From Vicinamibacterales bacterium (lineage in GTDB: Bacteria; Acidobacteriota; Vicinamibacteria; Vicinamibacterales; UBA8438): a stretch of DNA of 64,000 nt. The stretch spans positions 1,173,914 to 1,237,913 of the forward strand of contig OZ252219.1 in assembly GCA_965249105.1 (NCBI GenBank). The letters are read 5' to 3'. Each line of letters opens with the position of its first letter. The stretch's first letter is position 1. A program made the translations under genes and the position numbers. Positions 8,038-62,051 of the stretch are shown here, in pieces. The notes beneath the pieces are model-generated. The model saw only the letters and a list, made by a program, of their open reading frames with translations. It searched no databases and was not told the DNA's origin.

Positions 8038-8617
8038 CGGAACATAATCCGCTGAGCTCGATCAAAAGTTTTAATCCGGGATAAGCCGGGATCATCCGGG
8101 ATGGCCCCGGGATGCGACTCGCGCGAGAACAACAACTTATCCTCCGATGCGGAGGTACCGACGCTGCCCGCCAAGACACTCCCCCTGAGCCGGTCAAGGA
8201 GTGTGAAGCGGGACATAGTAGGGACCCATCAAATATTCGTCGTTTATTCGCTTGACGACGTGCGAGACGGGTTCGCTCGAGACTGCCCCCACCGCCACCC
8301 AGTCTGGCTGATGCTCGCACTCCGGGATCGCTCGGGGGCGGCCCCCGAGTTTTTCTGTGGATGCCGGGCGATTTCGACGGTCGCGGGCGCGGCGCCGAGA
8401 AGACGAGACACGTCTGGAGCGAGGTGGCGCCGGTATGCGGGCGATCGTCTCGCGAGCCGGTTTCCGTGGTCCGGGTGGGGCGCACGTGAGAGCCTCCCGG
8501 GACACCTCTCCCACGGACGGCGGATCCGGCCTCGGCACGGCCCAATTCTGTCGCCCTCCCCGTCAGTCGTTGCGCCCGCGCGAGTCGCATCCCGGGGTCA
8601 TCCCGGGTTATCCCGGG
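8038..8617 (+). repeat. CCGGGAT-TIR element, copy A (main body; its right TIR is interrupted by an IS)
   Basis: Left end is cggaacataatccgctgagctcgatcaaaagttttaatccggg, followed by CCGGGAT at 8076, 8086, 8096 and 8107. Core is colinear with copy B (59202..59821). Confidence 0.85.
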
Positions 8618-8823
8618 AGGCACTTGCAAAACTCCTGGCCGACAGTGGAACAAGCGTCAGGGTTTGGGTGCAAACTGGTCACTCGGGCCCAGGGCACCGG
8701 GATCGAGGCACCGATTCATGAGGAGACGCAGGCCCGCCCGGGCATTGGGCGAGGGTCTGGCAAGAGCTGCCGCCTTCTGCGCGTAGGCAGCTGGGTGGAT
8801 CGAGGTCATCACGTCACCGATGG

Positions 8824-9963
8824 CTACGTGACGAGGCGCATGAGTTGGTCAGCGGTGAGTGCGAGCACGCCGAACATGCAGTGGCACATCACCTTCGCCG
8901 GGCCGCGGACCCGGACATGGCGACCGCCGAATTCGTCCTTGAGGCGGCCATTGACCCGCTCAACGGCCGTGCGTTCGTTGTAGCGAACGTCCTCCGGAAG
9001 CTGGAAGCCAAGCACCTGTCGGCGCCGAGCTTCCGCTTGGCGTTCTTCCTTCAGCGCCGTGTTGCGGCGCGTGTTGATGTCGATCAGCGGAACGTGGTTC
9101 AGCGAACGGCTGTGTGCCCGAATCTCCTGCGCATCGTAGGCGGCGTCCATCACGTCGTACAGATTGGTGCTCCGCTCGGCGGACAGGGTTGCGAGCGGAA
9201 TAGCGGCCTGGCTGTCATGAAGGGAGGCAGTGGTCAGTAGGCAGCTGATGGGGATCTGGCCATCGGCCACATCGATATGCAGCTTGTAGCCGACCCAGGT
9301 TTCCTTGTAGCCCTTGCTGTTCTTTTTCGTCCCGACATCGCAGGCCGTCGGGAGATCAGCGAGCATCTCCGGCTTGGTCATGGTGCCCTGCCGCTGCAGA
9401 CGCGTGGGCTCGTGAGGGCGCTCCTCTCCCTTCTTCGGTCGTCCCCGCTTCCGCTGCGAGGGCGCGGGCGGCTTGTCCTTCGTGGCGGGCTTCTCGCGTG
9501 CCGCAATCGCGGTGGAGTCTCGCGAGAGATGACCGACCAATCGGTCGTGATGCGTCTTCTGGATGACCGTCTCGTGCACGCGCAGAGGCAACTGCGTGGT
9601 CGCAAACTCGTCGAAGGCGTGTGAGAACAAGGATTCGCTCGGGACCTGGCGCCTAGTCTCCCAGCCGCAGATCCGGCGCAAGGGTCGATCGGTGGCCAGC
9701 CGATCGAGCAGCCTGCGTGTCGTCGGCAGGTCGTAGACGGCCTTGGCGACAAACGCGCGGGCGACGGCCGCGCGATCCTTGCGAGGTCGGCCGGGCATGC
9801 GGACGCGTCGGGGAATGTGGTCCTCGACCCGGATGACCTCCAAGGTCTGCACGAACTGCTGCTGTTTCTCCGTGAGTGGTCCCAGCTCTTCCTCCAGCCA
9901 TGGAAAGAGTGCGGTCTGAATGGACAGCCAGTGTGGTGCGAAGCACTCTCGGAGACGGCTCAT
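8824..9963 (-). CDS. DDE transposase, IS4/IS5 superfamily (IS1182-like), about 379 aa
   Basis: N-terminal DUF772-like region (GRPRKDRAAVARAFVAKAVYDLPTTRRLLDRL...RRICGW) and DDE core (GYKLHIDVADGQIPIS...DAAYDA). Start set at MSRLRE. Confidence 0.75.
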   Translation of the reverse strand: MSRLRECFAPHWLSIQTALFPWLEEELGPLTEKQQQFVQTLEVIRVEDHIPRRVRMPGRPRKDRAAVARAFVAKAVYDLPTTRRLLDRLATDRPLRRICGWETRRQVPSESLFSHAFDEFATTQLPLRVHETVIQKTHHDRLVGHLSRDSTAIAAREKPATKDKPPAPSQRKRGRPKKGEERPHEPTRLQRQGTMTKPEMLADLPTACDVGTKKNSKGYKETWVGYKLHIDVADGQIPISCLLTTASLHDSQAAIPLATLSAERSTNLYDVMDAAYDAQEIRAHSRSLNHVPLIDINTRRNTALKEERQAEARRRQVLGFQLPEDVRYNERTAVERVNGRLKDEFGGRHVRVRGPAKVMCHCMFGVLALTADQLMRLVT

Positions 9964-10026
9964 TTTCTTCTTGACTCCTGGGGCCAGGTCTAGCAGTATA
10001 ACAACTGCTAGACCGAATGGCACGAC

Positions 10027-10374
10027 ATGCCCACCCGTGACCCAACAACCGACACGCAGCGCTACGACGCGCTCAAGCGCACCGTCGCTGAGGTGGGATT
10101 GCTTCGACGTGGCAGCCTCGTGCAACGTTTCATGCCGTGCGGCAAGCCGAACTGCCGCTGCCAAGCGACGCCCCCGCAGCTACACGGGCCGTACTATCAG
10201 TGGACCCGCAAGGTCCGCGGCAAGACCGTCACCGTCCGTCTCACCGAGCAGCAAGCCGAGCGTGTCCGGGACTGGATCGAGAACGGCCGACAGCTAGACC
10301 GAATCGTTGTGGAAATGGAGACGTTGTCGCTGCGGATGACTGAGCGCCTGCTTCGTCAGCTCACGCCTGTGTGA
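10027..10374 (+). CDS. small Zn-ribbon-like protein (DUF6788-like), divergent from the transposase inside the IS
   Basis: CGKPNCRCQATPPQLHGPYYQWTRKVRGKTVTVRL. I recall this motif from transposase-adjacent genes; the family assignment is from memory. Confidence 0.5.
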   Translation: MPTRDPTTDTQRYDALKRTVAEVGLLRRGSLVQRFMPCGKPNCRCQATPPQLHGPYYQWTRKVRGKTVTVRLTEQQAERVRDWIENGRQLDRIVVEMETLSLRMTERLLRQLTPV

Positions 10375-10438
10375 TGTGGCCCGCACCGTGCGCAAGCCGC
10401 CAAAAAACTTCTCTACGCGCAGGGTTTTGCAAGTGCCT

Positions 10439-10479
10439 CCCGGGTTAAAACTTTTGTGACGATACGTGTGCCACCTCTG
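10439..10479 (+). repeat. CCGGGAT-TIR element copy A, displaced right terminus (Z-type end)
   Basis: cccgggttaaaacttttgtgacgatacgtgtgccacctctg is identical to 59781-59821 of copy B. Confidence 0.8.
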
Positions 10480-10768
10480 TGCGAAGCAGAACGGGTACGT
10501 CGAATCGTTCAACGGCAAGTTGCGGGATGAACTCCTCGACCGGGAGATCTTTTACACGCTGACGGAAGCCCAGATCTTGATCGAACGGTGGCGGCGGGAG
10601 TACAACACCGTGCGGCCCCACAGTGCACTGGGCTACCGCCCACCGGCGCCGGATGCGATCATGCCGGCTGCGCTCAGGAGCGTAGATGAGTCCAGCTCTC
10701 TCATAACAAGTGGTACAACCATGGGGGGCAGGTCACCACCCGCTCCGACTTCGCTTGACGGCTGTTGA
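10480..10768 (+). pseudogene. IS3-family (IS407-like) OrfB C-terminal fragment
   Basis: QNGYVESFNGKLRDELLDREIFYTLTEAQILIERWRREYNTVRPHSALGYRPPAP. It starts at the repeat end. Confidence 0.75.
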
Positions 10769-15781: not shown

Positions 15782-16055
15782 GGTATCCGATTCGACATGG
15801 GTGGGGATTATGGGGAATGACGCCTACGCCACGATGCCATGCACCGCCCCTCCAGACTCAGCGCGGGCACATCCACGTTCAACGCGGGCTCCCAGCAATA
15901 CTAACCCGGCGACGGGCGTGTCAAGGAACCCTCAATTTCCCCCGGTAAGATAAGGGGTAGATTGCTTGTAGTCACTTGATTAGAATGCTCTTCGTTTCCT
16001 CTTGAAACGAATATGGCATGTGAAGATGACTTTGAATGAGGAGTACGGGGTCCAG

Positions 16056-20930: not shown

Positions 20931-21341
20931 GTGACAACGCGTAGCAGCTCCCACCACGCACTCACCGACCTACAGCAAGCGATACTTGAGTGTATCTGGC
21001 GAAACGGGGAGGCCACAGCTGAAGACGTTCGCCAGGCGCTTGAACCGCAGCATTCGCTCAAGGATTCCACTATTCGTACGGTGCTTCGTCGTCTGGAAGG
21101 GCGTGGATACGTGAGTCATCGTCTCGAGGGACGAGCCTTCCTGTATCGGGCCGAACTGCCGCGGCAGCGAGTGGCTGCGTATGCCGTACGGCAGATCATT
21201 GACCGGTTCTGCTCCGGATCGGTTGAGCAGTTTCTCGTGGGGATGGTGGACGAAAAGGTTCTGTCAGCGAAGCAGATCGCCCGCCTCACGCGGAAGTCAG
21301 AGGGCACGGCGACGCGGAAGACGGTACGGAGGCGCACATGA
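20931..21341 (+). CDS. blaI: BlaI/MecI/CopY-family transcriptional repressor
   Basis: Winged helix LTDLQQAILECIWRNGEATAEDVRQAL...TIRTVLRRLEGRGYV. ATGA overlap with the M56 peptidase gene. Confidence 0.8.
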   Translation: MTTRSSSHHALTDLQQAILECIWRNGEATAEDVRQALEPQHSLKDSTIRTVLRRLEGRGYVSHRLEGRAFLYRAELPRQRVAAYAVRQIIDRFCSGSVEQFLVGMVDEKVLSAKQIARLTRKSEGTATRKTVRRRT

Positions 21342-23383
21342 GCGCGGTCCTGGTCGGTGTGCTTCTCGAGGTCTCTGTTCGCGTGGTGGTGCTCGCGGGC
21401 CTCGTGGCCGGGGCGCTCGCGCTGCTGAGGGTCCGCGCGAACGGCGTGCTCCATGCCGCGTGGACTGGAGTACTCGTGGCGATGCTGCTGATGCCCACAC
21501 TGCCCTCCTTCGTGCCGGCGGTCACGGTCCCTCTACCAGCGCCGGCGCGGCACCTTGTCGCAGTGGCGGGCGGACTGGCACCCAGACAGCCCGTCGCACG
21601 AGCCCCACGGGTGCTCCCGAGTTCACCGCCGAGGCGACCGACGGCCGCCACGCCGGCCCCGAGTGAGGCGCCCCGTCGCGGAGCGTCGTGGCCGTTCGTC
21701 GTACTCGTCATCTATGGGACCGGCGTCTTGTTCCTGCTGCTGCGCCTGGCGGTCGGCTGGCGGGGCGCCCGGCGCGTCTCACACGATAGCGAACCCGCGG
21801 TTCCCGAAGCCGCACGTCATCTCTCGTGGTGGCCGTCGACCGCCCGCATCTGCGAATCCCGATACGTGACGGTACCTGTGGCTCTGGGCGCGCTCGCGCC
21901 GGCCGTCGTTCTTCCGCTCGGGTGGAGGCGCTGGCCAGACGCGCAGCTCCGCGCGGTGGTCGAGCACGAGGTGGCGCACGTCGCGCGCCGCGATCCCCTC
22001 ATCGCGTTTCTCGCACGTCTCAACGCGTGTGTGTTCTGGTTTCATCCGCTCTCCTGGTGGCTGGAGCGCCGGCTGGCGGTCACGGCCGAACACGCGTGCG
22101 ACGAAGTCGCCGTGCGCGCGACCGGCGACTCAGGCGGTTACATCACCGTCCTCATGGAGATGGCGGCGACAGTCCGACGAGGGGGCGGGCGGTTGCGATG
22201 GCATGGCGTCGGCATGGACGGGAGCAGGCGCCTGTCGGATCGCATCGACCACGTGCTGGGTGGACCTGTCGGGCCGGACGTCTCGCGGTTCCGGAAGACC
22301 GCGGTGGCCGCAAGTTGCGGCGTGGCGATTCTCGCGGTGACAGCGTGTCGACTGCCAAGCGGTGAACGGTCGTACGAAGAGATGCGCCGATCGGTCGAGT
22401 GGCTGATCGAGCGGGGTTCAGGCACCGAGGTGGAGGTCTCGCAGGCCAACCGACCACTCGCCGAAGACGTGCTCCTCAGCAAACTCAGAGACGATCCGAC
22501 GGGGCCATGGTCGGCACGTCTCGGCAGCTTCTATGCCGCCAGCCTGGTCGGTCACTGGGTGCAGTTTTCGGAACGCGGACTGCACCACGAAGTCACCGAG
22601 GTCGACCCAGAGAGCCAATTTGCTGTGGCGGCCCGCGAGAAGTTGGACAAATCAACCGACCCGGTCATGCTTACCGCCGCCGCGAAGTTTCTCGTGCGTT
22701 CTCCCCGTCCAAACGGACGTTCTGACGAGGCTACCATCCTGCTGGCGAGATCGTACCTTGAACGGGCCGTCCGTCTGGCGCCGGAGTTGGCAGACGCTCG
22801 CGCGGAGCTCGTGTCGGTGGTCTCTCACACCAGAAGGCGTGCTCAGTGGCTGTTTACCCTTGAGGCGCCGCCGGTGTCGCAGTACGACGCGGTGATGTCG
22901 TTGCCGGGGCCGGACCGGTTCGAGCTATTGCCGTACGCGGCGATTGCCGCGTACAAGGCCGCTCGCCAGGTGGCGCGTAACAACAATCCTAATATGGCTC
23001 GGTACGTTCACGTGAAATTCGAGAACTCAAGACGCTTTGCGGAAGCCCTCCTGGCGCTGGCATCGGATTTCCGGACCCATCCGGACGTCGGAACGGCGAT
23101 CTACAAGGCCCACATGGTGTTGGCTGCTCATGCGCTGCGCGACGGACACGCGGACACCGCCGTCGAACACCTAGGGCTGGCGTCGATGGCGCCACCGTCT
23201 GATGGGTTGAAGTACGGCCGGCGGATCGCGTCGTGGCAGGTCGTTCTCGATCTCGTGAGTGCGGGTGAGGGCGCCGCTGTTGCCGAGTTCCTGGATCGGA
23301 TGGCGGAGACGAGTATCGTGGATCGCAGCCTGCTGCTCGAGTCGGCCGCAGCTGTGCGGAGCGGCCAACCTCCGGTCGGGTAG
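21338..23383 (+). CDS. blaR1: BlaR1-like M56-family membrane peptidase / signal transducer (681 aa)
   Basis: N-terminal TM helices, HEVAHVARRD zinc motif and a long helical-repeat-like C-terminal sensor region. Confidence 0.8.
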   Translation: MSAVLVGVLLEVSVRVVVLAGLVAGALALLRVRANGVLHAAWTGVLVAMLLMPTLPSFVPAVTVPLPAPARHLVAVAGGLAPRQPVARAPRVLPSSPPRRPTAATPAPSEAPRRGASWPFVVLVIYGTGVLFLLLRLAVGWRGARRVSHDSEPAVPEAARHLSWWPSTARICESRYVTVPVALGALAPAVVLPLGWRRWPDAQLRAVVEHEVAHVARRDPLIAFLARLNACVFWFHPLSWWLERRLAVTAEHACDEVAVRATGDSGGYITVLMEMAATVRRGGGRLRWHGVGMDGSRRLSDRIDHVLGGPVGPDVSRFRKTAVAASCGVAILAVTACRLPSGERSYEEMRRSVEWLIERGSGTEVEVSQANRPLAEDVLLSKLRDDPTGPWSARLGSFYAASLVGHWVQFSERGLHHEVTEVDPESQFAVAAREKLDKSTDPVMLTAAAKFLVRSPRPNGRSDEATILLARSYLERAVRLAPELADARAELVSVVSHTRRRAQWLFTLEAPPVSQYDAVMSLPGPDRFELLPYAAIAAYKAARQVARNNNPNMARYVHVKFENSRRFAEALLALASDFRTHPDVGTAIYKAHMVLAAHALRDGHADTAVEHLGLASMAPPSDGLKYGRRIASWQVVLDLVSAGEGAAVAEFLDRMAETSIVDRSLLLESAAAVRSGQPPVG

Positions 23384-23415
23384 ACCAGGGTCGTTGCTGA
23401 CCCCAGCCCCCCACA

Positions 23416-23449
23416 GATCCGGACATGCGGGTTCTTCCGCATCCGGCTC
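23416..23449 (-). ncRNA. Group II intron domain V
   Basis: The minus strand reads GAGCCGGAUGCGGAAGAACCCGCAUGUCCGGAUC. The canonical form is GAGCCGUAUGCGAUGAAAGUCGCACGUACGGUUC. The AGC triad and bulge are retained. Confidence 0.6.
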
Positions 23450-23466
23450 CTCGGCAGATGGTTTCG

Positions 23467-26783: not shown

Positions 26784-26913
26784 GTCGATCAGAAGTTGTG
26801 ATCTCGGGACTTTACCGGGATCTACCGGGATAGCCGGGATGCCCGCGAGCGGCGCACGTCTCACTTGTTTCGGATAGTTCCGGAATATTTCGGATCAAAA
26901 CTTTCGATCGCGG
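26784..26913. repeat. Mini (TIR-only) derivative of the CCGGGAT-TIR family
   Basis: gtcgatcagaagttgtgatctcgggactttaccgggatctaccgggatagccgggatg faces its inverse ...cggatagttccggaatatttcggatcaaaactttcgatc. Confidence 0.6.
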
Positions 26914-27392: not shown

Positions 27393-27495
27393 CTCACGAA
27401 ACACGCTGGCCCAGCTGAGTTCCAGCAATCGGCGCCGTTTCGGTCCCAGATGTTCCCAGGGATCGAACAACGCACCACTCTGACGGTCGCGAAGA

Positions 27496-28945
27496 GCTTG
27501 GGTTCAAGGTGTCGTCGCAACACCGCGTTGTGTGATTGAGCATAGGTGATCGCCAAGTGCCTCCGCGGGTGTCTTCCAGCCGAGGGTCTTGCGGGGGCGA
27601 CTGTTGAGAGCAGCAGCAACGGCGTCAAGATCATCACGAGAGTGTCTGGACAGGTCGGTGCCTTTGGGAAAGTACTGCCGCAGCAGGCCGTTGGTGTTCT
27701 CGTTCGTGCCGCGTTGCCAGGGGCTGTGTGGGTCGCAGAAGTAGATTGGCAGACCGGTGTCGATTCGGAGTTGAACGTGTTGAGCCATCTCGGCGCCTTG
27801 GTCCCATGTCAGTGAACGGCGAAGCTGCGTGGGCAGCGTGATGATCGACGACGCGATGGCGTCTCGGACGGCCTCGGCACCATGCCCCGCCAGGGCGGGA
27901 CCGTTCTTGATCCGAGGCTGCCCATAGTCATCCATGCGAGGCAGATGCAGCAGCCTCGTGAATCGGCTGGTGCGTTCCACGAGGGTCCCAATCGCAGAGC
28001 TCCCCAGTCCGACAATCAGGTCACCTTCCCAGTGTCCTGGGACCGCCCGATCGTCTGCTTCGGCGGGGCGCTTGCTGATCATGAGTTCGGCAGTGACGAA
28101 CGCCTTGCCGCGTCCTCGTGTCCGTGCTCTTGGCACGCGCAGCGCCCGGCCGGTCCGCAAGCACGCCACCAGGTCGCGTCGCAGTGCCCCTCGTCCCTGC
28201 ACGTAGAGCGCCTGGTAGATGGCCTCGTGGGAGATCCGCATCGACTCCTCATCGGGGAAGTCGACCTTGAGTCTGTTGGCAATTTGCTCAGGACTCCATG
28301 ACGCCGCCCAGCGTCGGTCTTGACGGCGCCCGGGGCGGCGACCGTTCCAGTGCACATGGGGACCAGGCACCCTCGTCCCGTCGGCGGCCGTAATCCTGCC
28401 GGCGAGTCGGTCTTGCACGTACCGGCGCAGTTCGTCGTGTGCAGCGAGCTTCGCCACCTGCGGTCTTTTCGCCTTCAGGTCGGCGTGCCACTGCGCGGTC
28501 GTCGCGCGATACTCGAGTCCGCCACTGCGGGTTGCCGCATTGCGACGGAGCTCCCGAGAGATGGTCGACGGGGACCGGCTGATTCGCCGAGCGATATCAC
28601 GAACCCCGCAGTGCTGGGCGTGCAAGATGGCGATCTCGTCTCGTTCGGCAAACGACAGGTAGCGCCCCGACAGAGGGGCCAGGCTGATCGGCGGCATGCC
28701 TCCACTTTCGCGGAACCATCTCGTTCCGACCGGCTGGGACACGCCGGCCCCCAGCGCCGCCTCTTCGCTGGACAACCCGCAGGCGATCGCCTCCCAGAAC
28801 CGACGCCGATGCTCACGGCGTCCCGCCGTGGGACGACCCGGCGACCGCATCGGAAGACGTCCCGCACGGGGTGACCGACGACGTTTCGGTGTTCCCATCG
28901 CAACTCCTCACCGTTGAGGTGTTGCGACGACCGTTTGAATCTACC
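27496..28945 (-). mobile_element. IS30-family IS, copy 2
   Basis: Same IRs as copy 1. 3-bp direct repeat gag at 27493-27495 and 28946-28948. Confidence 0.85.
27504..28898 (-). CDS. IS30 family transposase
   Basis: 464 aa, differing from 269..1663 at a handful of residues. Confidence 0.9.
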   Translation of the reverse strand: MGTPKRRRSPRAGRLPMRSPGRPTAGRREHRRRFWEAIACGLSSEEAALGAGVSQPVGTRWFRESGGMPPISLAPLSGRYLSFAERDEIAILHAQHCGVRDIARRISRSPSTISRELRRNAATRSGGLEYRATTAQWHADLKAKRPQVAKLAAHDELRRYVQDRLAGRITAADGTRVPGPHVHWNGRRPGRRQDRRWAASWSPEQIANRLKVDFPDEESMRISHEAIYQALYVQGRGALRRDLVACLRTGRALRVPRARTRGRGKAFVTAELMISKRPAEADDRAVPGHWEGDLIVGLGSSAIGTLVERTSRFTRLLHLPRMDDYGQPRIKNGPALAGHGAEAVRDAIASSIITLPTQLRRSLTWDQGAEMAQHVQLRIDTGLPIYFCDPHSPWQRGTNENTNGLLRQYFPKGTDLSRHSRDDLDAVAAALNSRPRKTLGWKTPAEALGDHLCSITQRGVATTP

Positions 28946-31482: not shown

Positions 31483-31723
31483 CGCGGTTCCGCTCCATCC
31501 GCGGGCCCATCCATGACACAGGTCAACCGCCACACAGGTAGTGGCGGACCAGATCGCCGGGGCCGACGCTGCCGAGATCGACGCCGGCGAGGAGGAAAGC
31601 GCCCGGACTGAGCTCTATTGACCCGATTCCCGGACGGTCCCTCTCGGTCGGCGAATGTTCGAGTGAGGGCTCCGCCGGTTTAGGTCCACTCGGAGCGTGA
31701 GACTGCGCCCGGTCGTGGCCGCG

Positions 31724-31855
31724 CATCCCGTTTATCCCGCCTAGTCCCGCAAGATCCCGGATCAAGACTTTTGATCGCGCACATCCGCGTCTTCTTGCTC
31801 TACTTATCCCGAGGTTATCCCGGGTTTCAAAACTTCTGATCGAGGTCAGCCGCCC
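31724..31855. repeat. Two tandem degenerate TIR-like modules of the CCGGGAT-TIR family
   Basis: catcccgtttatcccgcctagtcccgcaagatcccggatcaagacttttgatcgcg and ttatcccgaggttatcccgggtttcaaaacttctgatcgagg. Confidence 0.55.
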
Positions 31856-32117
31856 TGGGGGAACACTGGAAGTTGACCCGACCCGAGCGGGCACTCAACT
31901 CAGCCCCGGCTCCGAATTGAACGACGCGAAACGGTTGGTGGCGTTCTTGCGCTGAAGGCGATCTATGGAATCGGCCATGCGTTCGTCGATGGAGGTCATG
32001 GCACTCCCTAGCTAGATGTCTCCATCCCTTTCTTCTGCCGACCTCACAGCGGCGATGATCAGGGCGTTCGGAAACTCCCGCAATCCTTCATGACGGGCGG
32101 CGTTCAATTTCGCGATC

Positions 32118-32591: not shown

Positions 32592-32790
32592 ACAACCCGA
32601 ACGGAGGGTGGAAGGGTCGCGGCTTGTGGGCGACGTACGGTGACGCGGTGACCTGGCACATCGAAGGGGGGGTGGGCGTCAAGCCGGGCCTCCTGAAGTT
32701 CCAGGTCCGTCCGGATCCCCTCGCCAACTGAGCGGTCGTTAGTTAGTTCGCCGTCACTCCTTCAGGCCGTTGCGAAGCGCCGGGAGTTCG

Positions 32791-33854
32791 TTTTAATCCG
32801 GGATAAGCCGGGATCATCCGGGATGACCCCGGGATGCGACTCTCGCGGTCGCAACGACGTACGGGGACGCGGCGGCCCCAGCGGGGGGCGGTGGGCCGGG
32901 TGCGGCTCTACAACGTCACCGACGATGCAGTCGTCGATGGCCCCCAGTCAGGTGGTGCTGGGTGGGCGGAAGGTCGCGATCCGGCGGCCGCGCGGCCGCC
33001 GCGACGGCGCAGGAGCTGCGGATCCAGCGTGGCGCGTTGCGCTCGACGACGAGGCGTTCGTCGTCGATGCCCGGGTCGGTGTACGGTCGGTCGTGCAGCC
33101 CGGCGTGGATCACGCGCACCAGCTTGTGGGCGGTGGCCAGGATCCATCCCGGTAGCCGACGCTCTGTGGGCGCAACGACTGACGCCGAGTCCAGCGCCGG
33201 GACGCCACGTTGCACCTGCCGGTGCAGGTCCACGCGCGCCGCGCGTCATGGTCAGTTTCTGTGCCGTGGGCTCGGCCGCCGCGCCGCGAGAAGTTCTTGC
33301 AGCGGCATATTCCGGGACTTGCCGGGCTCCATCCCGGAATCCGACGCTCCGCGGACCCGACGACTGACAGGGGTCAGTCGTACATGGCTCTCTCAAAACC
33401 CCGGACCACCGAACCTGGCTCGCGAGACGATCACGCGGACCCCGGCCGCCACCTCGCCCCCGGCGCGACTCACCTCCCCGGCGCCGCGCCCGTAACCGCT
33501 GAAATCGCCTGAATCCAACGAGGAAATCGGGGGCACCCCTCGAGCGATCCCGAAGTGCGAGCATCGGCAGGACTGGGTGGCGGTGGGGGCAGTCTCGAGC
33601 GAATCCGTCTCGCACGTCGACAAGCGAATAAAAGACGAATATTTGAAGGGTCCCTACTATGTCCCGCTTCAAACTCCTTGACCGGCTCAGGGGGAGTGTC
33701 TTGGCGGGCAACGTCGGTACCTCCGCATCGGAGGATAAGTTGTTGTCCTCGCGCGAGTCGCATCCCCGGGGTCATCCCAAGAGTCGCATCCCGGGGTCAT
33801 CCCGGATTATCCCGGCTTATCCCGGATTAAAACTTGGGTCATGCCTAGCTGAGC
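32791..33854 (-). repeat. CCGGGAT-TIR element, copy D (1064 bp, longest; carries an IS110-like remnant)
   Basis: Both TIRs are present. The core is colinear with A, B and C. Extra DNA sits between two right-end-like modules. There is a partial internal duplication of the left TIR (gagtcgcatcccggggtcatccc, twice). Confidence 0.85.
33022..33144 (-). pseudogene. IS110-family transposase, C-terminal remnant
   Basis: ILATAHKLVRVIHAGLHDRPYTDPGIDDERLVVERNAPRWI resembles the conserved IS110 Tnp tail (A.KL..II...L..G..Y......NAPRW). Confidence 0.55.
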
Positions 33855-34349
33855 CTCTCTGAACGTTCCGACCTGGTACCCCGCCGATCTGAAAATGGCC
33901 GATTGCGTCGAGGTTGGCTTTGACCGTCTCTGCCAGGCACCCTTCCATGATCTGCATATGGTAGAAGTCGTACTGCAGTAACACATTGTCGGTGCCAACC
34001 TGATGAATGATCCTCTGGGCCTGCGCGCTCCGCGTCAGAAAATAGCCCGGATTGTCCCGAGTGTTGAGTGGCTCGATGAGGAGGCGCACGCCAAGCGGTC
34101 TCGCCTGCTCGGACGCCCACTGCACGTTGGATACAAAGGTACCCTCGGCTCGCGTGTCGTCGGTCTTGCCAGCCAGGCAGTGCAGTTGACGGCAACCAGT
34201 AGCCTCGGCGTACTCGAGCGCCCGCGTGACGTCCTGTTCGAATTCAGCCTCCTGTCCGGGAATGGCACCGACGGCTGTCGGCAGGTTGAACAGCACCGGG
34301 GTCAAGTCGTGACACCTGAGGCGGTCGGCGATGTCTTCCGGTGCGGTAT
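33855..34349 (-). pseudogene. hyi: hydroxypyruvate isomerase (xylose-isomerase-like TIM barrel), truncated at both ends
   Basis: LTPVLFNLP...GQEAEFEQDVTRALEYAEATGC..LHCLAGK...LLIEPLNTRDNPGYFL...LLQYDFYHMQIMEG...IGHFQIGGVPGRN. Both ends stop at repeat termini. Confidence 0.75.
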
Positions 34350-34533
34350 CGGAACATAATCCGCTGAGCTCGATCAAAAGTTTTAATCCGGGATAAGCCG
34401 GGATAATCCGGGATGACCCCGGGATGCGACTCGCGCGAGGACAACAACTTATCCTCCGATGCGGAGGTACCGACGCTGCCCGCCAAGACACTCCCCCTGA
34501 GCCGGTCAAGGAGTTTGAAGCGGGACATAGTAG
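34350..34533 (+). repeat. CCGGGAT-TIR element, left-end-only fragment (copy E)
   Basis: X-type end plus TIR plus the first ~115 bp of the core, breaking at gcgggacatagtag. Confidence 0.8.
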
Positions 34534-35483
34534 TAGCCCCCCGCGCTCGACTCGGCGAGCACGATGTCATCCCACACGCTCGGGTTGAGGACGTAGTGCG
34601 TCGCCATCGACCGACCGGTAAACCGGATCAGCGTCTTGGCCTTCCGCAGGACGTTGAGCGGTTTCGAGCGCACCACGTTGGTTCCCGTGCCCGTCGTCGT
34701 CCAGCCGATGTCCTGAATCCCCGTCACGGTGAGCAGGTCCCGGAGGTTCGGTGCCGTCCCGTCGCCCTTCAACGTCGCGAGGTCGACCGCCTGGCGCACC
34801 ATGAAGGGCAGCGTGTCGTCCAGGTAGCTTTCGACTTGCGGCTCGTCCTCCATCTCCTCGCGGGTGACGGGAATGTGGGTGGCGATCTTGCGGACCGCGG
34901 TTTCCTGCTGCGTCAGCGCGAGCGTCGACTCCGGCGCCCAGCCCGCGTCGGTCTTGAACAGCGTCGCCAGGATCGCGTCGTCCCGCACCAAGAGGGTGCT
35001 CTTGAGCGGGAGGCTCGCCATCTGACTCGCAAACGCCGCCGAGCCGAGCGCGGGAATGTCCCCCTGCTGCGTGAAGTCCGCGCGGATCAGATCCGCGAGC
35101 TGCGCCCGCGGCGCAGGGCGGACGAGCTGGACCGGCGCTGGGTCGGCAGCGCTGACGCCGCCGCCGCGATTGCCGGCCCGAATGTCCTGCGCCACGCGAT
35201 CCAGCTCGGTCCGCTCCGTGAGCGCGTCTTCGAGCCCCGAGAGCTCCGAGTGGACGCCAATCAGCGCCTCGCACTTCTCGGCCAGGCTCTTCCCGTCGCC
35301 AATCGCGGTGACCTTGGCGAGATCGAGATCGTCGCCCGCTTGGTCAAACGCGTTTTGCATGGCGCGCTCGACCTCGTCCCGCTTCGTCGTGATCGCCGCG
35401 GCGGGCTTGCCACGCCACGCGGTAAAGGTGTCCTTCCGCTTCGTCTCGTCCACCGAGGCGAAGGGTTTCATGGGCTGAGTCAT
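34534..35483 (-). pseudogene. HK97-family phage major capsid protein, 3'-truncated by repeat copy E
   Basis: Delta-domain-like N-terminus, then THIPVTREEMEDEPQVESYLDDTLPFMVRQAVDLATLKGDGTAPNLRDLL. The C-terminal ~60 aa are missing. Confidence 0.75.
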
Positions 35484-38599: not shown

Positions 38600-38713
38600 C
38601 TGGAGCGCGCACAGTGAGGTCGATCAAAAGTTTTGATCCGGGATAAGCCGGGATCATCCGGGATGACCCTGGGATGCGACTCTCGCGGTCGCAACGACGT
38701 ACGGGGACGCGGC
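38600..38713 (-). repeat. CCGGGAT-TIR element, right-end-only fragment (copy G, V-type end)
   Basis: ctggagcgcgcacagtgaggtcgatcaaaagttttgatccggg plus the TIR plus gtcgcaacgacgtacggggacgcggc, as in C and D. Confidence 0.8.
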
Positions 38714-38863
38714 CTGGAACATCTCCAACGTCGGCTTCGAGACGCCGCCTGCGGCTGCCAGGGCACTCACGACCAGCACGACCGAGGCAGGGCTTCGCAG
38801 GGTCGAAGTGCAGCCGCTGGCGCGCGGGGTCTGACGAGACATCATGGGGGGATCTCCCGTCTC

Positions 38864-39245
38864 TCACGCTCGCGCGTCCACACCACCGACGCCAGGCTGG
38901 GACGCCTCGCCTGGGTGTCCACGCGGCTCTCCATCATGACCGGAGGGAGACGCGAACCCCAGCCGCGCCCGCTGCGCAACCCAGGCCACCGGCAGGCGGG
39001 TGTCGTGCATGAGCGTGGTGGCCGTCAGCGCGGCCGGCTGCCGGCCTTCGACGATGGCGGCGACGATGTCCGGGGCCAGGTAGCGCAGCCGCAGCAGGCG
39101 GGTGACATACGAGGCGGACACCTGCTCGGCCGCCGCGATTTGGGGCAGCGTGCGCGCGGGAGGCTGCGTCAGCCGATCATGGATCGTGACGGCACGCCCC
39201 AGCAGCCGGATCAGGCACGGGTCCGCGTGGGTGTGGGTGGCGAAT
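38864..39245 (-). pseudogene. C-terminal DNA-binding fragment resembling serine-recombinase-family proteins (catalytic domain absent)
   Basis: LPQIAAAEQVSASYVTRLLRLRYLAPDIVAAIVEGRQPAALTATTLMHDTRLPVAWVAQRARLGF. I recall this motif from recombinase-family proteins; the assignment is from memory only. Confidence 0.35.
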
Positions 39246-43068: not shown

Positions 43069-44424
43069 CTAGATATCCGAGAGGTGCTGCAGCTCCCCCC
43101 TGCTGTCGCCGATGCTCTCGACCGGCACGCCCACCTTGTTCAGGAGGCTGACGTACAGGTTGGTCAGCGGGGTGCCCTCCGGATACCGGAGGTGACGCCC
43201 TCCGCTGAGCTGTCCCGCGCCACCGCCCGCGACCACCAGCGGCAACCCGAGTGACGTGTGGGCGTTGCTGTCGGACATGCCTCGGCCGTAGAGCACGGCG
43301 ACGTCGTCGAGCAGGCTGCCGTCGCCGTCGGGCGTCGACCGCAGCTTCTCGAGGTAGTACGTGAGCAGCCCCGTGTGGTAGGTGTTGATCTTCGTCAGCT
43401 GCGCGAGGTTCTCGGCCTTGCTCTGATGGTGCGAGAGGGCATGGTGCGGATCGGGGACCCCGAGCTCTGGATAGGTGCGCCCGCTGAGCTCGGGCGCCAT
43501 GATGCAGGTAATGACGCGCGTCAGGTCGGCCTGAAACGCCACGACCTGCAGGTCGAACATCAGCTTCGCATACGCGTCGAAGTCGGCGGGCACACCTGGT
43601 GGCTGGTCGACCACCGGAAGCTCGCGGTCGCTTTGCACCTCGGCCATCCGGATGCGCCGTTCGACGTCACGCACCGCGTCGAGATACTCCGTGAGCTTGG
43701 CGCCATCACGGGTGCCGAGCCGCTTCTTGAGATGCGATGCCTTGTCGGCGACCGAATCGAGAATGCTGCGATCGGTCCTTGTGCGCGCGGCTCGAGCCGC
43801 CGGATCGGTGCTCTGCATGTCGCCGAAGAGCCGCTCGAAGACCGCGCGCGGGTTGTTCTCCATCGGCAGGGGCGTCGTCGGCGTGCGCCACGAGATCGTC
43901 GTCGTGTAGGCGCAGCTGAACCCGGCGTCGCAGGCGCCGGCGAACTCGGTCGACTCCAGGCTGAGCTCCAGCGACGCGAGCTGCGTGTGCCGGCCGAGGT
44001 GGGTCGCCGCGATCTGGTCGATCGAAACGCCCGCTTCGAAATCGGCACCTTCCGTTGGCTTGGCGTGCACGCCGGTCAGATACGCGCCGCTGATGCGCCC
44101 GTGGCCGCCGGCGGGCTCGCCCGGGCGCCGGACGGCCGGTGCGTTGTCGAGACCGGTCAGAACGAGCACCCGATCGCGGACCGGCGCTAGCGGCGACAGG
44201 ATCGCGCTGAGCTCGAACCCGGGTCCCTCGAGCGCGGGCGTCCAGTTCTCCATCACGGCGCCGTTGCCGAGATAGAGGATGCTCAAACGGGGCGTCGGTT
44301 TGGCCGCGCTGTTGCGGATCGCGGCGAACGCCGGCACCATGCCGTCGAGCAACGGAAGGGCGATGCTGGCGCCGAGGCCTCGAAGCACGGTGCGCCGCGC
44401 CAGCGCTTTCTTCATGACGATCAT
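43069..44424 (-). CDS. DUF1552-domain protein (Tat-signal-like N-terminus)
   Basis: MIVMKKALARRTVLRGLGASIALPLLD... and a C-terminal HT...LPLVVAGGGAG. ATGA overlap with the upstream DUF1592 gene. Confidence 0.75.
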   Translation of the reverse strand: MIVMKKALARRTVLRGLGASIALPLLDGMVPAFAAIRNSAAKPTPRLSILYLGNGAVMENWTPALEGPGFELSAILSPLAPVRDRVLVLTGLDNAPAVRRPGEPAGGHGRISGAYLTGVHAKPTEGADFEAGVSIDQIAATHLGRHTQLASLELSLESTEFAGACDAGFSCAYTTTISWRTPTTPLPMENNPRAVFERLFGDMQSTDPAARAARTRTDRSILDSVADKASHLKKRLGTRDGAKLTEYLDAVRDVERRIRMAEVQSDRELPVVDQPPGVPADFDAYAKLMFDLQVVAFQADLTRVITCIMAPELSGRTYPELGVPDPHHALSHHQSKAENLAQLTKINTYHTGLLTYYLEKLRSTPDGDGSLLDDVAVLYGRGMSDSNAHTSLGLPLVVAGGGAGQLSGGRHLRYPEGTPLTNLYVSLLNKVGVPVESIGDSRGELQHLSDI

Positions 44425-46880
44425 GATTCGGACCTCCTCATTGTGAACGGCACGCTCCGGGCAACGCCCAGGATGATCGACGACCACCGGTGGTCGGGGC
44501 CGGCGCCTCGCACGATCTGCCGAATGGCCGGCTGATCGTAGTGCTCGACCCCGCGGCCGAGGGCGTAGGTCAGCAGCCTAGCGGTCACCGTCTCGACGAA
44601 CGCCTCCCGGCGCGAGTCTAGCAGCGCGCGCAGTCCCGCGGGTCCATCGAACGCCGCGCCATCGGGTAGCGTGGCGGACGCGTCGACCGGCTCGCCGCCG
44701 TCGTGGGTTCGCCATCTGCCGATCCCGTCGAAGTTCTCGAGCGCGAACCCGAGCGGGTCCATACGCGCGTGGCAGCTCGCGCACACCGGATTTGCCCGGT
44801 GTTGCTCCAGCCGTGCGCGCTGCGAGCGGGGCGCCGCGCCGTCGACGTTCTCGTCGAGGGCCGGCACGTCCGCCGGTGGCGGTGGCGGTGGCGCACCCAG
44901 GATGTTCTCGAGCACCCACTTGCCGCGCAGCACGGGCGACGTTCGCGTCGCGTGCGACGTCGTCGTCAGGATGCTGCCGTGCCCGAGCAGGCCCCGGCGC
45001 CCCTCGTTCACCGTGACACGGCGAAACCGGCTCCCGTAGACGCCGGGGATCCCGTAGTGCCGCGCGAGGCGCTCGTTGACAAACGTGTAGTCTGCGGTCA
45101 GCAGGTCGGTCACGCTGCGGTCTCCGCGCAGTTGGCTCTCGACGAACAGCTCCGTCTCCCGCTGGAACCCGTGCCGGAGGTTCTCGTCGAACTCCGGAAA
45201 CAAGTTCACGTTGGGCGCAACGCGTCGCATGTTGCGCAAGTGCAACCACTGCGCCGCGAAATTGGTCACGAGGGTCGACGATCGCCGGTCGGCCAGCATC
45301 CGCCGGACCTGCCGCTCGAAGACCGCCGGGTCGCTCAGCCGCCCGTTGGCGGCGAGGTCGAGCAGCTCGTCATCCGGGAGGCTGCTCCACAGAAAGAACG
45401 ACAGCCGCGAGGCGAGCTCGAGGTCGCTCAGCCGATACGGCGTCCCGGGCGCGGCGCCCGGCGGGTCGGCCTCGAGCCGAAACAGGAACTCAGGGTCGAC
45501 CAGGATCCGCGTCAACGCCCGCTGGATGCCGACGTCGAACGCGCCGGCCTGCCGACCAGCCTCGTAGAAGCCGACGAGCGTGGCGACGTCGGCCTCCACC
45601 ACGGGACGGCGGTAGGCCCGGCGCGCCAGCGTCGCGAGGATCTGCCGCGCGCACGGTTCTTCGGCGTCCGGTGTTTCCGGCTGGCAGACGAAGATACGAC
45701 GCCGGCTCGCAGTGTCGCCGGGTCCGGTGGGGTCGTGCGGGCCGTCGATCGCGAGGCTGCCGATGCCCATCCGTTCGGACTCGAGCCGATCGCGCACGGA
45801 GCTCAGGATAAAGTTGCTAACCGGCAGGCGGCGAGGGGTCACGCCCTCGGGCGCCAGCGTCCGCCGCAGGAACGCGACGCCGACCGACCGCGCACCGGCC
45901 TCGACCCGGACGCGCACCGTCAGCCCGGCGTCGGCGTCCATGCACTCGCTGTAGTTTGTCCCCCCCACCTTCAACGTCTGGCTGCACTTCGGGTCGCCGC
46001 CGGCGGCGAACAGCGCGACCCGCTCGCCGTCGATGCGGCCCTCGAGCTGCTCGGCGCGGGCCAGACCGTAGATGTTGCCGATCACGTCCCGCTGGAGGCG
46101 GAGGCGCAGGATGTAGTCGGCGTCGAGCGGGAAGTAGTGCCGCACCGCGATCCCGCCACGCGACCCCAGGGGAAGCGCTTCGCTGGCGCGGGTATCCTGC
46201 ACGCGGGCCCGCGCGAGGTCGTAGGTCTGCACGGTGGGCGCGACGTCGGAGTTACCGATCGCCAGGCGGCTGACCTTGTGGGCCGCCGAGACGTAGCGCT
46301 CCATCAGCGCCGGCGAGACGTTCAAGACGTCCGCGTTGTTGTCGAAGCCGAAGCCGAGGTCGTCCGCGGGCAAGAGCGACGGCCCGTCGATCTCGAGCGC
46401 CAGGAGATCGCGGATCGCGTTCGTGTACTCGGTGCGGTTGAGCCGATGGACCGACGGCCGCCCCGGGTTCGGCGCCGCGGCGCCGGCCTCGTCGAGCGCG
46501 GTCTCCAGCCACCCCGCGAACCGCTCGTAGGTGGCCGGCTCCGGCCGTGCCTGGCCGCCGGGCGGCGGCATCGTGCGCGTCCGCAGCTTGCGCAGCACCT
46601 TCTCCCAGACCGCCGCGTCGGGGCCGACCGGCTCGAGCGCCACGGCGTCGAGCGCCAGGTTCGCCGTGCGGAGACGGGAGTTGTGGCACGTCACGCAGTA
46701 GCGATCGAGGACCGCACGATACGTCGAGGCCGACGGGACAGCGAGGACCGGCGAGGCCGATTGCTGCGACGGCGCGGCAGCGCGGCGGGCCGGGCGGGCG
46801 AGCGCACCCGCTCCTGGCCAGAGCAGGGCGCTGGCCAGCGCACAGAGGACACCCCATCCCATCGGGTGGCGCATGTTCAC
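44421..46880 (-). CDS. DUF1592/DUF1595/DUF1587/DUF1588/DUF1585-type protein with CxxCH motifs (819 aa)
   Basis: CVTCHN near the N-terminus and CASCH near the C-terminus. Usual partner of DUF1552. Confidence 0.75.
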   Translation of the reverse strand: MNMRHPMGWGVLCALASALLWPGAGALARPARRAAAPSQQSASPVLAVPSASTYRAVLDRYCVTCHNSRLRTANLALDAVALEPVGPDAAVWEKVLRKLRTRTMPPPGGQARPEPATYERFAGWLETALDEAGAAAPNPGRPSVHRLNRTEYTNAIRDLLALEIDGPSLLPADDLGFGFDNNADVLNVSPALMERYVSAAHKVSRLAIGNSDVAPTVQTYDLARARVQDTRASEALPLGSRGGIAVRHYFPLDADYILRLRLQRDVIGNIYGLARAEQLEGRIDGERVALFAAGGDPKCSQTLKVGGTNYSECMDADAGLTVRVRVEAGARSVGVAFLRRTLAPEGVTPRRLPVSNFILSSVRDRLESERMGIGSLAIDGPHDPTGPGDTASRRRIFVCQPETPDAEEPCARQILATLARRAYRRPVVEADVATLVGFYEAGRQAGAFDVGIQRALTRILVDPEFLFRLEADPPGAAPGTPYRLSDLELASRLSFFLWSSLPDDELLDLAANGRLSDPAVFERQVRRMLADRRSSTLVTNFAAQWLHLRNMRRVAPNVNLFPEFDENLRHGFQRETELFVESQLRGDRSVTDLLTADYTFVNERLARHYGIPGVYGSRFRRVTVNEGRRGLLGHGSILTTTSHATRTSPVLRGKWVLENILGAPPPPPPADVPALDENVDGAAPRSQRARLEQHRANPVCASCHARMDPLGFALENFDGIGRWRTHDGGEPVDASATLPDGAAFDGPAGLRALLDSRREAFVETVTARLLTYALGRGVEHYDQPAIRQIVRGAGPDHRWSSIILGVARSVPFTMRRSES

Positions 46881-46931
46881 GGCCAGAATGAATACTAGCG
46901 CAATGCGACGACGACCGAAAGGCCGAAGCGC

Positions 46932-55430: not shown

Positions 55431-55471
55431 CGGATTAAAACTTTTGATCGACCTCACTGTGCGCGCTCCAG
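55431..55471. repeat. Solo V-type end of the CCGGGAT-TIR family
   Basis: cggattaaaacttttgatcgacctcactgtgcgcgctccag. Its outer 31 bp (55441-55471) are the reverse complement of the V adaptor at 38600-38630. Confidence 0.7.
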
Positions 55472-59130: not shown

Positions 59131-59201
59131 ACTTGGCCTTGCCTCGCGGATCAGAAATGTATCCACATTCGTGCAGTCGAGTCCGTGTCCGGTGACGGCC
59201 G

Positions 59202-59821
59202 GCTAGGCATGACCCAAGTTTTAATCCGGGATATTCCGGGATCATCCGGGATGACCCCGGGATGCGACTCGCGCGAGGACAACAACTTATCCTCCGATGC
59301 GGAGGTACCGACGCGGCCCGCCAAGACACTCCCCCTGAGCCGGTCAAGGAGTGTGAAGCGGGACATAGTAGGGACCCATCAAACATTCGTCTTTTATTCG
59401 CTTGCAGACGTGCGAGACGGGTTCGCGCGAGACTGCCCCCACCGCCACCCAGTCTTGCCGATGCTCGCACTTCGGGATCGCTCGAGGGTTGCCCCCGATT
59501 TCCTCGTTGGATTCAGGCGATTTCAGCGGTCGCGGGCGCGGCGCCGAGAAGACGAGACACGTCTGGAGCGAGGTGGCGCCGGTATGCGGGCGATCGTCTC
59601 GCGGGCCGGTTTCCGTGGTCCGGGTGGGGCGCACGTGAGAGCCTCCCGGGACACCCCTCACACGGACGGCGGATCGGGCCTCGGCACGGCCCAATTCTGT
59701 CGCCCTCCCCGTCAATCGTTGCGCCCGCGCGAGTCGCATCCCGGGGTCATCCCGGGTTATCCCGGGTTATCCCGGATTATCCCGGGTTAAAACTTTTGTG
59801 ACGATACGTGTGCCACCTCTG
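59202..59821 (+). repeat. CCGGGAT-TIR element, copy B (620 bp, uninterrupted; best reference copy)
   Basis: The left TIR has 4 CCGGGAT units and the right TIR has 5 ATCCCGG units at 10-bp spacing. Y-type left end and Z-type right end. No credible ORF. Confidence 0.9.
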
Positions 59822-60089
59822 AGTTCCTTCCTCCAGTGGAGAAGTCCGGAACAGTGAGGTCATGGTGAACGCTTCCGCGACTACGCGTGTCACTGTCGCT
59901 GGCGCCCACCCGCAATTGAAAGTCTCCACTGGGCAGCTGAAGCTGAGTCACTACTCGCAGGCCGTCCCGACGGACTGAGGAAGGAAGTAGGATGCGCCGC
60001 CCCTCTCGAACCTGACCGTTCCTGTCGGCGCTGATTGACAAACGGCCGTCGATTGTCCAGGAAGAGCTGGGTCCCTGACTCGGAAACAT
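59822..60089 (-). pseudogene. hypothetical protein fragment, 3'-truncated at the repeat end (possibly the C-terminal region of an acidobacterial VWA-type protein)
   Basis: LQLPSGDFQLRVGASDSDTRSRGSVHHDLTVPDF. Weak resemblance only. Confidence 0.25.
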
Positions 60090-61255: not shown

Positions 61256-61313
61256 CTACCGCCTAGGCATCGCTGGTTCTCGGCCGTCGAGCGTAGATCG
61301 CTCTTCCGGTCAC

Positions 61314-62051
61314 GCTCAGCTAGGCATGACCCAAGTTTTAATCCGGGATAAGCCGGGATCATCCGGGATGACCCTGGGATGCGACTCGCGCGGTCGCAAC
61401 GACGTACGGGGACGCGGCGGCCCCAGCGGGGCGCGTGGCGCTCGACGACGAGGCGTTCGTCGTCGATGCCCGGGTCGGTGTACGGTCGGTCGTGCAGCCC
61501 GGCGTGGATCACGCGCACCAGCTTGTGGGCGGTGGCAAGGATCCATCCCGGAATCCGACGCGCCGTGGACCCGACGACTGACAGGGGTCAGTCGTACATG
61601 GTTCTCTCAAAACCCCGGACCACCGAACCTGGCTCGCGAGACGATCACGCGGCCACCGGCCGCCACCTTGCCCCAGGCGCGACTCAGCTCCCCGGCACCG
61701 CGCCCGTAACCGCTGAAATCGCCTGAATCCAACGAGGAAATCGAGGGCAAGCCTCGAGCGATCCCGAAGTGCGAGCATCGGCAGGACTGGGTGGCGGTGG
61801 GGGCAGTCTCGCGCGAACCCGTCTCGCACGTCGACAAGCGAATAAAAGACGAATATTGGATGGGTCCCTACTATGTCCCGCTTCACACTCCTTGACCGGC
61901 TCAGGGGGAGTGTCTTGGCGGGCAACGTCGGTACCTCCGCATCGGAGGAGAAGTTGTTGTCCTCGCGCGAGTCGCATCCCGGGGTCATCCCGGATGATCC
62001 CGGCTTATCCCGGATTAAAACTTTTGATCGAGCTCAGCGGATTATGTTCCG
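61314..62051 (-). repeat. CCGGGAT-TIR element, copy C (738 bp, with a short IS110-like remnant)
   Basis: Y-type end on the right-TIR side and X-type end on the left-TIR side. The core is colinear with D. It lacks about 150 bp present in D. Confidence 0.85.
61431..61543 (-). pseudogene. IS110-family transposase C-terminal remnant
   Basis: AHKLVRVIHAGLHDRPYTDPGIDDERLVVERHAPRW, the same remnant as in copy D. Confidence 0.5.

Follow-up and report, generated by a model that had tools for sequence, protein, structure and literature searches.

A mobile-element family of Vicinamibacterales with fixed-length tips of variable sequence, probably moved by a large serine recombinase

A 64,000-nucleotide stretch of a Vicinamibacterales genome (assembly GCA_965249105.1, contig OZ252219.1, positions 1,173,914 to 1,237,913; hereafter the window) contains at least nine copies or stumps of one small mobile-element family, mapped by pairwise BLAST. 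The original prediction for this DNA had described four recurrent end segments (X, Y, Z and V) as interchangeable adaptors lying outside the element. Our analysis shows that these segments are the outermost ~31 bp of the element itself, that they travel along with it and that host DNA begins at their outer edge. We propose that the family is probably moved by a recombinase, with the cut placed by its distance from subterminal sites and the tips inherited, and that the gene stumps beside the tips arose by insertion and later rearrangement.

The 31-bp tips as part of the element

Each end of the element is a terminal inverted repeat of ~88 bp in three parts: a 31-bp outer segment (the tip), a palindrome inside it (GATCAAAA-G-TTTTGATC, hereafter the core) and a set of repeats. 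The end sequence reads TTTTAATCC and continues into four CCGGGAT units (iterons) at 10-bp spacing. The motif aaaagtttt, previously taken for the shared terminus, is the centre of the conserved palindrome, and the element runs ~31 bp further outward. The two sides of the interior differ and are named L and R. The copies, tips and stumps in the window are as follows:

8038..10481, plus strand: copy A, complete but interrupted by an insertion sequence (IS); X tip, L end, interior, R' end, Z tip
59188..59823, plus strand: copy B, complete, non-autonomous, 0.64 kb; Y' tip, L side through to R' end, Z tip
61305..62051, minus strand: copy C, complete, non-autonomous, 0.75 kb; X tip (62021-62051) with the L end, Y'' tip (61305-61335) with the R end
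32791..33832, with the Y-long tip at 33833..33863, minus strand: copy D, non-autonomous, 1.04 kb; R end at 32791, L end at 33832
33833..33863, minus strand: Y-long tip, the outer tip of the copy D L end; the identical 31 nt occur with another flank in locus L001
34350..34380, plus strand: X tip, the outer tip of the copy E L end
34381..34533 (with the X tip from 34350), plus strand: copy E, 153 bp of L end comprising the core, four CCGGGAT iterons and onward
38600..39242, plus strand: copy F, which corresponds to the right-hand end of the autonomous element and consists of the V tip, the core with its iterons, a spacer of 233 bp and the 3' portion of the recombinase gene
55431..55471, minus strand: copy G, V tip and 10 bp of element only (TTTTAATCCG)
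26788..26910, plus strand: diverged mini-element of ~120 bp with the same design (core-iterons...iterons-core)
31722..31862, minus strand: pair of diverged ends, of which one lies within the other's iterons; both have a 31-nt outer segment of their own

Copy A is a B-like element with a separate DDE_Tnp_1/DUF772 IS inside it at 8618-10435, and the Y' tip of copy B, together with its ATATT iteron variant, is also found in L128 (L numbers denote loci retrieved from other assemblies). The left side of copy D (U, 32760-32790) shows no recognised tip class; the D type is also present in L001, L004, L125, L126 and L128. Copy E is broken within a second iteron-like module, where a truncated capsid gene adjoins the break, and copy F is broken at 39242. 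Past the 10 bp of copy G lies unrelated DNA, followed by an IS256-type element.

All four segments recur at the positions and on the strands first reported, and shuffled sequences led us to expect none of them: X at 8038-8068(+), 34350-34380(+) and 62021-62051(-), exact in three of three; Y exactly at 33833-33854(-) and 61314-61335(+) and with 3 mismatches at 59197-59218; Z at 10451-10479(-) and 59793-59821(-); and V at 38600-38630(+) and 55441-55471(-). In copy D the Y segment is 31 nt long (33833-33863), comprising TTCAGAGAG and the Y core, and the full Z segment, which begins C[T/A]CAGAGG, likewise measures 31 nt. The segments are thus discrete, re-used types, and one interior occurs with differing types, as had been described: A pairs X with Z, B pairs Y' with Z, C pairs Y'' with X, and D pairs a unique end with Y. 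When W and T are added, the tip classes (X, V, Y and its variants, Z, W and T) have in common only an inner part of variable length, which spans 13 nt between V and T, 16 nt between X and V, 22 nt among the Y variants and 26 nt among the W variants. Outward of this stretch the classes are unrelated and begin, depending on the class, with CT, CG, TT or CA; every class still ends 30-31 nt from the core. X is found on the L end (3/3), Z on the R end (3/3) and V on the R end in all eight typeable cases (copy G is too short to type), whereas Y occurs on either.

The decisive evidence on where the element ends comes from the flanks. An identical, exact 31-nt V occurs nine times beside nine unrelated flanks in the window and in six loci that belong to other assemblies of Vicinamibacterales. 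Over the window and the retrieved loci together, X and Z have three flanks each, Y-long two plus one variant, and Y' and W two each; altogether, 20 junctions have 20 differing flanks with no target consensus. One sharp 31-bp edge beside so many different flanks identifies the adaptors as the outermost 31 bp of the element, and gene fragments stop at the tips because host DNA starts there. The original prediction had named as its counter-case that each adaptor is the conserved terminus of a subfamily with normal target-site duplications. The adaptors are indeed conserved termini; target-site duplications are absent from the complete copies: among A, B, C, D and the copy in L001, only the last is flanked by a possible one, a 2-bp TG. 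For annotation, this means that the boundaries of such elements are easily drawn 31 bp too far in, and that the elements, of which Vicinamibacterales soil bacteria have many, flag places of gene truncation.

That the unrelated flanks are chimeric joins, made by metagenome assembly at a repeated 0.6-kb element, is very improbable. The related loci do stem from metagenome assemblies, and repeat-induced chimeras would yield flanks of one copy that never match. However, gene truncation at the tips is real no matter how the flanks are joined, the same tips recur with other flanks in independent assemblies with Mb-size contigs, and repeats of 0.6-1 kb should be easily spanned if these are long-read assemblies, as the contig sizes suggest. 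Moreover, chimeras cannot generate tip classes.

The gene fragments beside the tips were checked with Pfam. The count of at least ten fragments ending exactly at adaptors has to be lowered to about seven; those identified are:

ending at 38599, at V: portal fragment (profile 175-320/321)
starting at 55472, at V: condensation domain fragment (profile 198-443/456)
33864..34349, minus strand: hyi-like (xylose-isomerase-like TIM barrel) fragment (AP_endonuc_2 31-191/249, E=1.8e-24), cut at both ends, between two facing element tips, Y and X
at 62052, at X: outer-membrane barrel fragment (OMP_b-brl_4 34-706/838)
at 10480, at Z: IS3 OrfB fragment (rve_3)
at 8037, at X: terminase fragment (terminase_6C, weak match)

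Three others do not end at a tip: the capsid gene (Pfam profile 58-192/280) stops at the break inside copy E (34533/34534), and the IS3 OrfA stump (ending near 59135) and the rve stump left of C (ending near 61210) stop 50-100 bp short of the adaptor. The further observation that the missing half of a gene never lies across the copy holds for the complete copies A-D, whose two flanks are different genes, and no reciprocal halves of the truncated genes were found. Later deletions, inversions and exchanges between copies may explain these orphan stumps and unmatched halves. A Campbell-type model, in which A and B derive from one insertion in an IS3 copy and another in the terminase gene, agrees with the crosswise match of the 2-bp flanks (AG, TG) and was rejected: the IS3 stumps lie ~900 bp apart within the IS, and the right flank of B is not terminase. 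With 11 ends, chance suffices to explain why the tip-edge dinucleotides of A and B agree crosswise and in no other way, and the agreement was discarded as evidence.

The tips contrast sharply with the sequence just inside them. Among copies A-E the 180 nt inside the core are 96-100% identical, and the deeper interior is 75-95% identical (75-80% between the A/B and C/D groups), whereas the 31 nt outside the core are unrelated between classes and constant in length. A step from unrelated tips straight to an almost invariant block is more than gradual divergence can account for; it points to repeated replacement of the outer part at constant length. The copies are also mosaic, so that exchange or gene conversion between them is real. 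D and E have near-identical L ends and carry Y and X tips, respectively. In addition, the L end contains a second, degenerate core-and-iteron module with its own 31-nt outer segment, and insertions of one end into the iterons of another are seen in three loci; the ends are rebuilt by nesting. Copy D also carries a 26-bp tandem duplication within its L-end iterons (33771-33800, GCGACTCTTGGGATGACCCCGGGGAT) that is absent from its inverted neighbour E.

These mosaics bear out one part of the original explanation, namely exchange between copies. As a whole it held that the element ends at aaaag/tttt and that the adaptors outside are re-paired by site-specific or homologous recombination, producing deletions and inversions; we regard it as rather unlikely. 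In its favour, every junction is palindromic, and the left junction repeats the right one exactly in inverted orientation, the central G/C included, which is the geometry of a serine invertase inversion site; tips are heterologously paired in all five complete copies; D and E combine near-identical L ends with different tips; and the breakpoints in G, L003, L004 and on the U side of D cluster close to the core. The route through the palindromic core nevertheless fails, because a core crossover leaves each adaptor joined to its own outer flank and cannot put one adaptor beside many flanks, of which V has nine and X and Z three each. The restriction of X to L ends and of V and Z to R ends argues against free inversion of the interior, and no reciprocal products were found.

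The parent element and its recombinase

Past its first 85 bp, copy F runs into a recombinase stump, the C-terminal 122 codons at 38864..39232(-), which is 94% identical to protein P0001 and whose homologues carry the name site-specific DNA recombinase. Copy F is 97% (range 96-98%) identical to L125 6112-6753, L127 5453-6091 and L128 5453-6013, and in these three loci the F-like DNA lies downstream of two intact genes, one for a 147-aa DUF2924 protein and one for a Resolvase/Recombinase protein. Upstream of the two genes is the sequence that forms the L side of A-D; in L128 this side starts with the Y' tip of copy B and is interrupted by two unrelated IS elements. With the units in L125, L127 and L128, copies A-D have in common the R end and, up to about 570 bp, the L side. 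Taken together, these loci point to a composite parent of ~3.3 kb with the order tip, L end, ~0.7 kb of non-coding DNA, DUF2924/RAMA gene, gene for a 609-aa recombinase, ~0.25 kb, R end and tip. Judged by their sequences, A-D are 0.6-1 kb non-coding internal-deletion derivatives of this parent, resembling miniature inverted-repeat transposable elements (MITEs), and would need the recombinase to be supplied in trans. The open reading frames (ORFs) listed inside A-D look spurious, and one ORF from the middle of the D type had no match when scanned with Pfam. An IS110-like remnant suspected by eye in the middle of copy D was dropped for lack of Pfam support. No RNA family was found in the element with Rfam (gathering thresholds over the window; E<=1 over 32700-34600), and a promoter and terminator scan of copy B returned nothing exceeding chance.

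The 609-aa recombinase matches Pfam Resolvase (1.2e-36, residues 19-170) and Recombinase (1e-13), with a weak Zn_ribbon_recom match at 0.069, as well as the phrog_95 integrase family (5e-96). Its best PDB match is the catalytic domain of TP901-1 integrase (2e-23). By these matches, the enzyme of the element is a bona fide large serine recombinase (LSR). The DUF2924 protein gives a weak Pfam RAMA match, in line with the partial match of DUF2924 to the RAMA DNA-binding domain (PMC11342252). The family has >8000 members at E<1e-30, many of them ~60% identical in Alphaproteobacteria. An 87%-identical relative of the recombinase lies in a 3836-bp unit that is 99.95% identical in two contexts (L131 2025-5860 and L132 2025-5860), which indicates that the recombinase clade is mobile. 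The edges of this unit carry no iteron inverted repeats; an Amidohydro_2 gene replaces its R end, and a foreign R-type end lies upstream of DUF2924. Comparable ends were also absent from a sister element around P0042, whose recombinase is 72% identical.

The recombinase occurs either as a single 609-aa protein or split into ~450 aa and ~130-160 aa, as in L125 (4661-6489) and in phage AcaML1 (Gp3/Gp2), whose annotation names the pieces 'large' and 'small' subunits. Many database members measure ~455 aa, suggesting that the split may be a natural form and not a frameshift. With DUF2924 and a large serine recombinase, iteron inverted repeats, miniature derivatives and fixed-length tips of free sequence, the element is of a previously undescribed kind.

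Placement of the cut and competing explanations

In the mechanism that we consider probable, the recombinase, likely helped by the RAMA protein on the palindrome and iterons, would exchange strands ~31 bp (~three helical turns) outward. Tips of equal length and unrelated sequence beside a near-identical 180 bp suggest that the position of the cut depends on how far it lies from the subterminal sites and not on the tip sequence. The tip sequence would then be unconstrained, could be replaced through deletion, nesting or exchange between copies, and once replaced would be inherited by daughter copies. Gene fragments would end at the tips because the insertions end there, and their unmatched halves would be the outcome of subsequent rearrangement by deletion, inversion and exchange where IS elements and remains of prophages are crowded together. 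LSRs are prized in genome engineering for their long, specific attachment sites. If the proposal is right, a natural LSR with a RAMA-domain partner acts in a transposase-like manner at many unrelated sites and supports miniature non-coding derivatives, and the enzyme tolerates or ignores the sequence next to the crossover; this would widen the known range of LSRs and add another way of positioning a cut.

A molecular-ruler reading, which we put forward only tentatively, holds that the ends are defined by distance and not by sequence at all, that the adaptors are captured bits of flank, and that the LSR is a low-specificity transposase with MITEs of its own. Any foreign DNA brought within 31 bp would then become a new tip and be passed to daughters.

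Several points weigh against recombinase-driven movement with a distance-set cut. Among the fetched loci, no empty site, circular junction or clean insertion was recovered, and mobility by the recombinase is deduced from co-occurrence. For the L001 copy, ORF continuity and the phase of GC content at third codon positions were used for empty-site reconstruction, and its right flank does not look coding. No intact autonomous copy was seen, each L side being truncated or disrupted by an IS, which is why the parent is a composite. Serine recombinases require an identical 2-bp overlap at both ends, and an identical dinucleotide flanks the tip edges in only one complete copy, L001 (TG/TG). Known LSRs read half-sites of ~25 bp centred on the crossover, and we know of no precedent for cutting 31 bp away from the chief conserved motif where the proximal part is free in sequence. 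The tip classes may also have a simpler origin, as ancient termini that diverged and that gene conversion, working from the inner side, then made partly uniform.

A different role for the adaptors, as halves of an attB site, is improbable. It would have a circular element integrate by a crossover at the palindrome centre into sites resembling GAGCTCGATCAAAAG/CTTTTGATCGAGCTC. In its favour, X, V, T, W and the diverged ends have a conserved stretch in their inner 11-16 nt (TCGATCAAAAG) that mirrors the element's TTTTGATCC, just as attB and attP half-sites have a common proximal motif; relatives of the recombinase are phage integrases; and L127 and L004 each have a tRNA 3' half joined to the element interior. 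On the other side, the left and right junctions differ at the palindrome centre, G versus C, so that there is no identical 2-bp overlap in direct orientation, Y and U wholly lack the outer half-site, and sharp outer edges beside truncated genes are unlike a chromosomal target. Unoccupied X+Z, V+Y or similar adaptor pairs, like solo adaptors, were absent from the window, L001-L004, L125 and L126. A crossover at the palindrome centre with the junctions as attL and attR was ruled out for the same geometry: since the left palindrome is an exact copy of the right one down to the central G/C, but in inverted and not direct orientation, a core crossover fits only inversion and not excision or integration.

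As to the tRNA fusion, the interior of the element (e.g. window 59410-59445) holds a degenerate tRNA look-alike, GGGTTCGC.CGAGACTGCCCCCACCGCCA. In L127 (3048-3090) and L004 (~3010-3050) a tRNA-like 3' half (T arm, acceptor and CCA) replaces everything outside the look-alike point. ARAGORN called no complete tRNA at the L127 and L004 fusions, and a tRNA search of the window found none. Integration into a tRNA gene may have left the fusion behind, or the fusion may stand in place of such an integration.

Relation to known systems, distribution and neighbouring sequence

Our comparison suggests that the closest precedent for distance-set strand exchange lies in IS607-type elements. In these, TnpA dimers form a filament on subterminal repeats, the target is bound non-specifically and no target-site duplication arises (PMC6188088). 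Like the IS607 family (IS607, IS1535), the present element has a serine recombinase as its probable mobility enzyme, several subterminal repeats per end (here predicted binding sites), no target-site duplication and very low target specificity. IS607 TnpA, however, is small and has a MerR-like DNA-binding domain at its N-terminus and the catalytic domain at its C-terminus, whereas the enzyme here has 609 aa, an N-terminal catalytic domain and a Recombinase domain, and is accompanied by a separate DUF2924/RAMA protein. IS607 also has no inverted repeats at its termini, and a fixed GG marks both its ends and its target, in contrast to the ~88-bp inverted repeats, palindrome, 10-bp-phased iterons, variable tips and flanks without GG described here.

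Movement of a discrete element to many sites by an LSR is known from Tn4451/Tn4453 (TnpX), Tn5397 (TndX) and the 'multi-targeting' LSRs of Durrant et al. (PMC10083194). Tn4451/Tn4453 and Tn5397 create no duplication past a 2-bp overlap, and no longer one is seen here. TnpX is a weak sequence relative of the recombinase catalytic domain (PDB 2mhc); DUF4368, typical of TnpX-like enzymes, is absent among the Pfam matches of the N-terminal 447 aa of the recombinase. Tn4451/Tn4453 and Tn5397 are 5-20 kb long with cargo, a fixed GA overlap and short imperfect end repeats. To our knowledge, miniature non-autonomous derivatives, iteron arrays or variable tips have not been described for LSR transposons.

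The integrases of phage WO (Wolbachia) and AcaML1 (Acidithiobacillus) resemble the recombinase with 32-47% identity over 66-93% of the protein. The gene order also agrees: a DUF2924-size gene (Gp4) lies directly upstream of the recombinase in AcaML1, and a DUF2924 gene precedes it in a WO-like region of Wolbachia. The AcaML1 enzyme is moreover split like that of L125. These phages are 30-60 kb long with a single attachment site, unlike the 3.3-kb multi-copy unit with inverted-repeat ends and 0.6-kb derivatives. Serine invertases (Hin/hix, Gin/gix) offer a parallel in that the two junction palindromes are mutually inverted including the asymmetric centre; each palindrome half-site contains an A-tract, ATCAAAA, and the hix and gix half-sites likewise contain one. 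Hin and Gin, however, serve single-copy switches with 26-bp sites and an invertase of ~190 aa, whereas the present element is dispersed and multi-copy, and the confinement of X, V and Z each to one end type shows no sign of frequent inversion. Finally, A-D are like MITEs in being short, non-coding, multi-copy, bounded by inverted repeats and internally deleted from a longer coding parent. Known bacterial MITEs, by contrast, have DDE-transposase IS parents and target-site duplications; here such duplications are absent and the parent encodes a serine recombinase.

Of 185,579 reference genomes scanned, only three contained the element; these are metagenome-assembled genomes from Vicinamibacterales, in which it again carries V and Y tips. 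Context look-ups added more loci, which come from two soil assemblies. The family is so far known only from Vicinamibacterales (Acidobacteriota). An exact-pattern scan for the inner repeat gave no matches in metagenome contigs, and a scan of viral contigs gave none either. A looser pattern (three CCGGGAT at 10-bp spacing) returned at least 120 metagenome loci, none of them related by BLAST and none encoding the recombinase or DUF2924. CCGGGAT arrays at exact 10-bp spacing are common in unrelated metagenome contigs, including AT-rich coral-associated ones (L005-L124; at least 120 loci).

The iterons also harbour an IS. The 1.8-kb DDE_Tnp_1/DUF772 IS in copy A (8618-10435) sits in the CCGGG of the outermost R-end iteron, beside Z, and a 99.6% identical copy at L126 2711-4551 occupies the same iteron position beside V, suggesting that this IS targets iterons. 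In L126 the IS also carries a DUF6788-type ORF.

The window as a whole contains four IS256-type, two IS30-type and two DDE_Tnp_1 elements, IS3 remnants and prophage debris. The four IS256-type elements (Transposase_mut; 2044-3408, 4738-6170, 14350-15782 and 53874-55305) are 99-100% identical, and the two IS30-type elements (HTH_38 and rve) lie at 222-1683 and 27484-28945. A group II intron match (Rfam RF00029, domains V-VI, 46.7 bits, 23375-23451(-)) sits at the end of an ORF at 21227-23380 that encodes a BlaR1-type peptidase M56. Planctomycete-type domain genes (DUF1552; DUF1592/1588/1587/1585/1595) at 43072-46973 and a six-fold ankyrin-repeat protein at 46899-48392 lie in a stretch of 70-72% GC, compared with ~62% in the remaining window.

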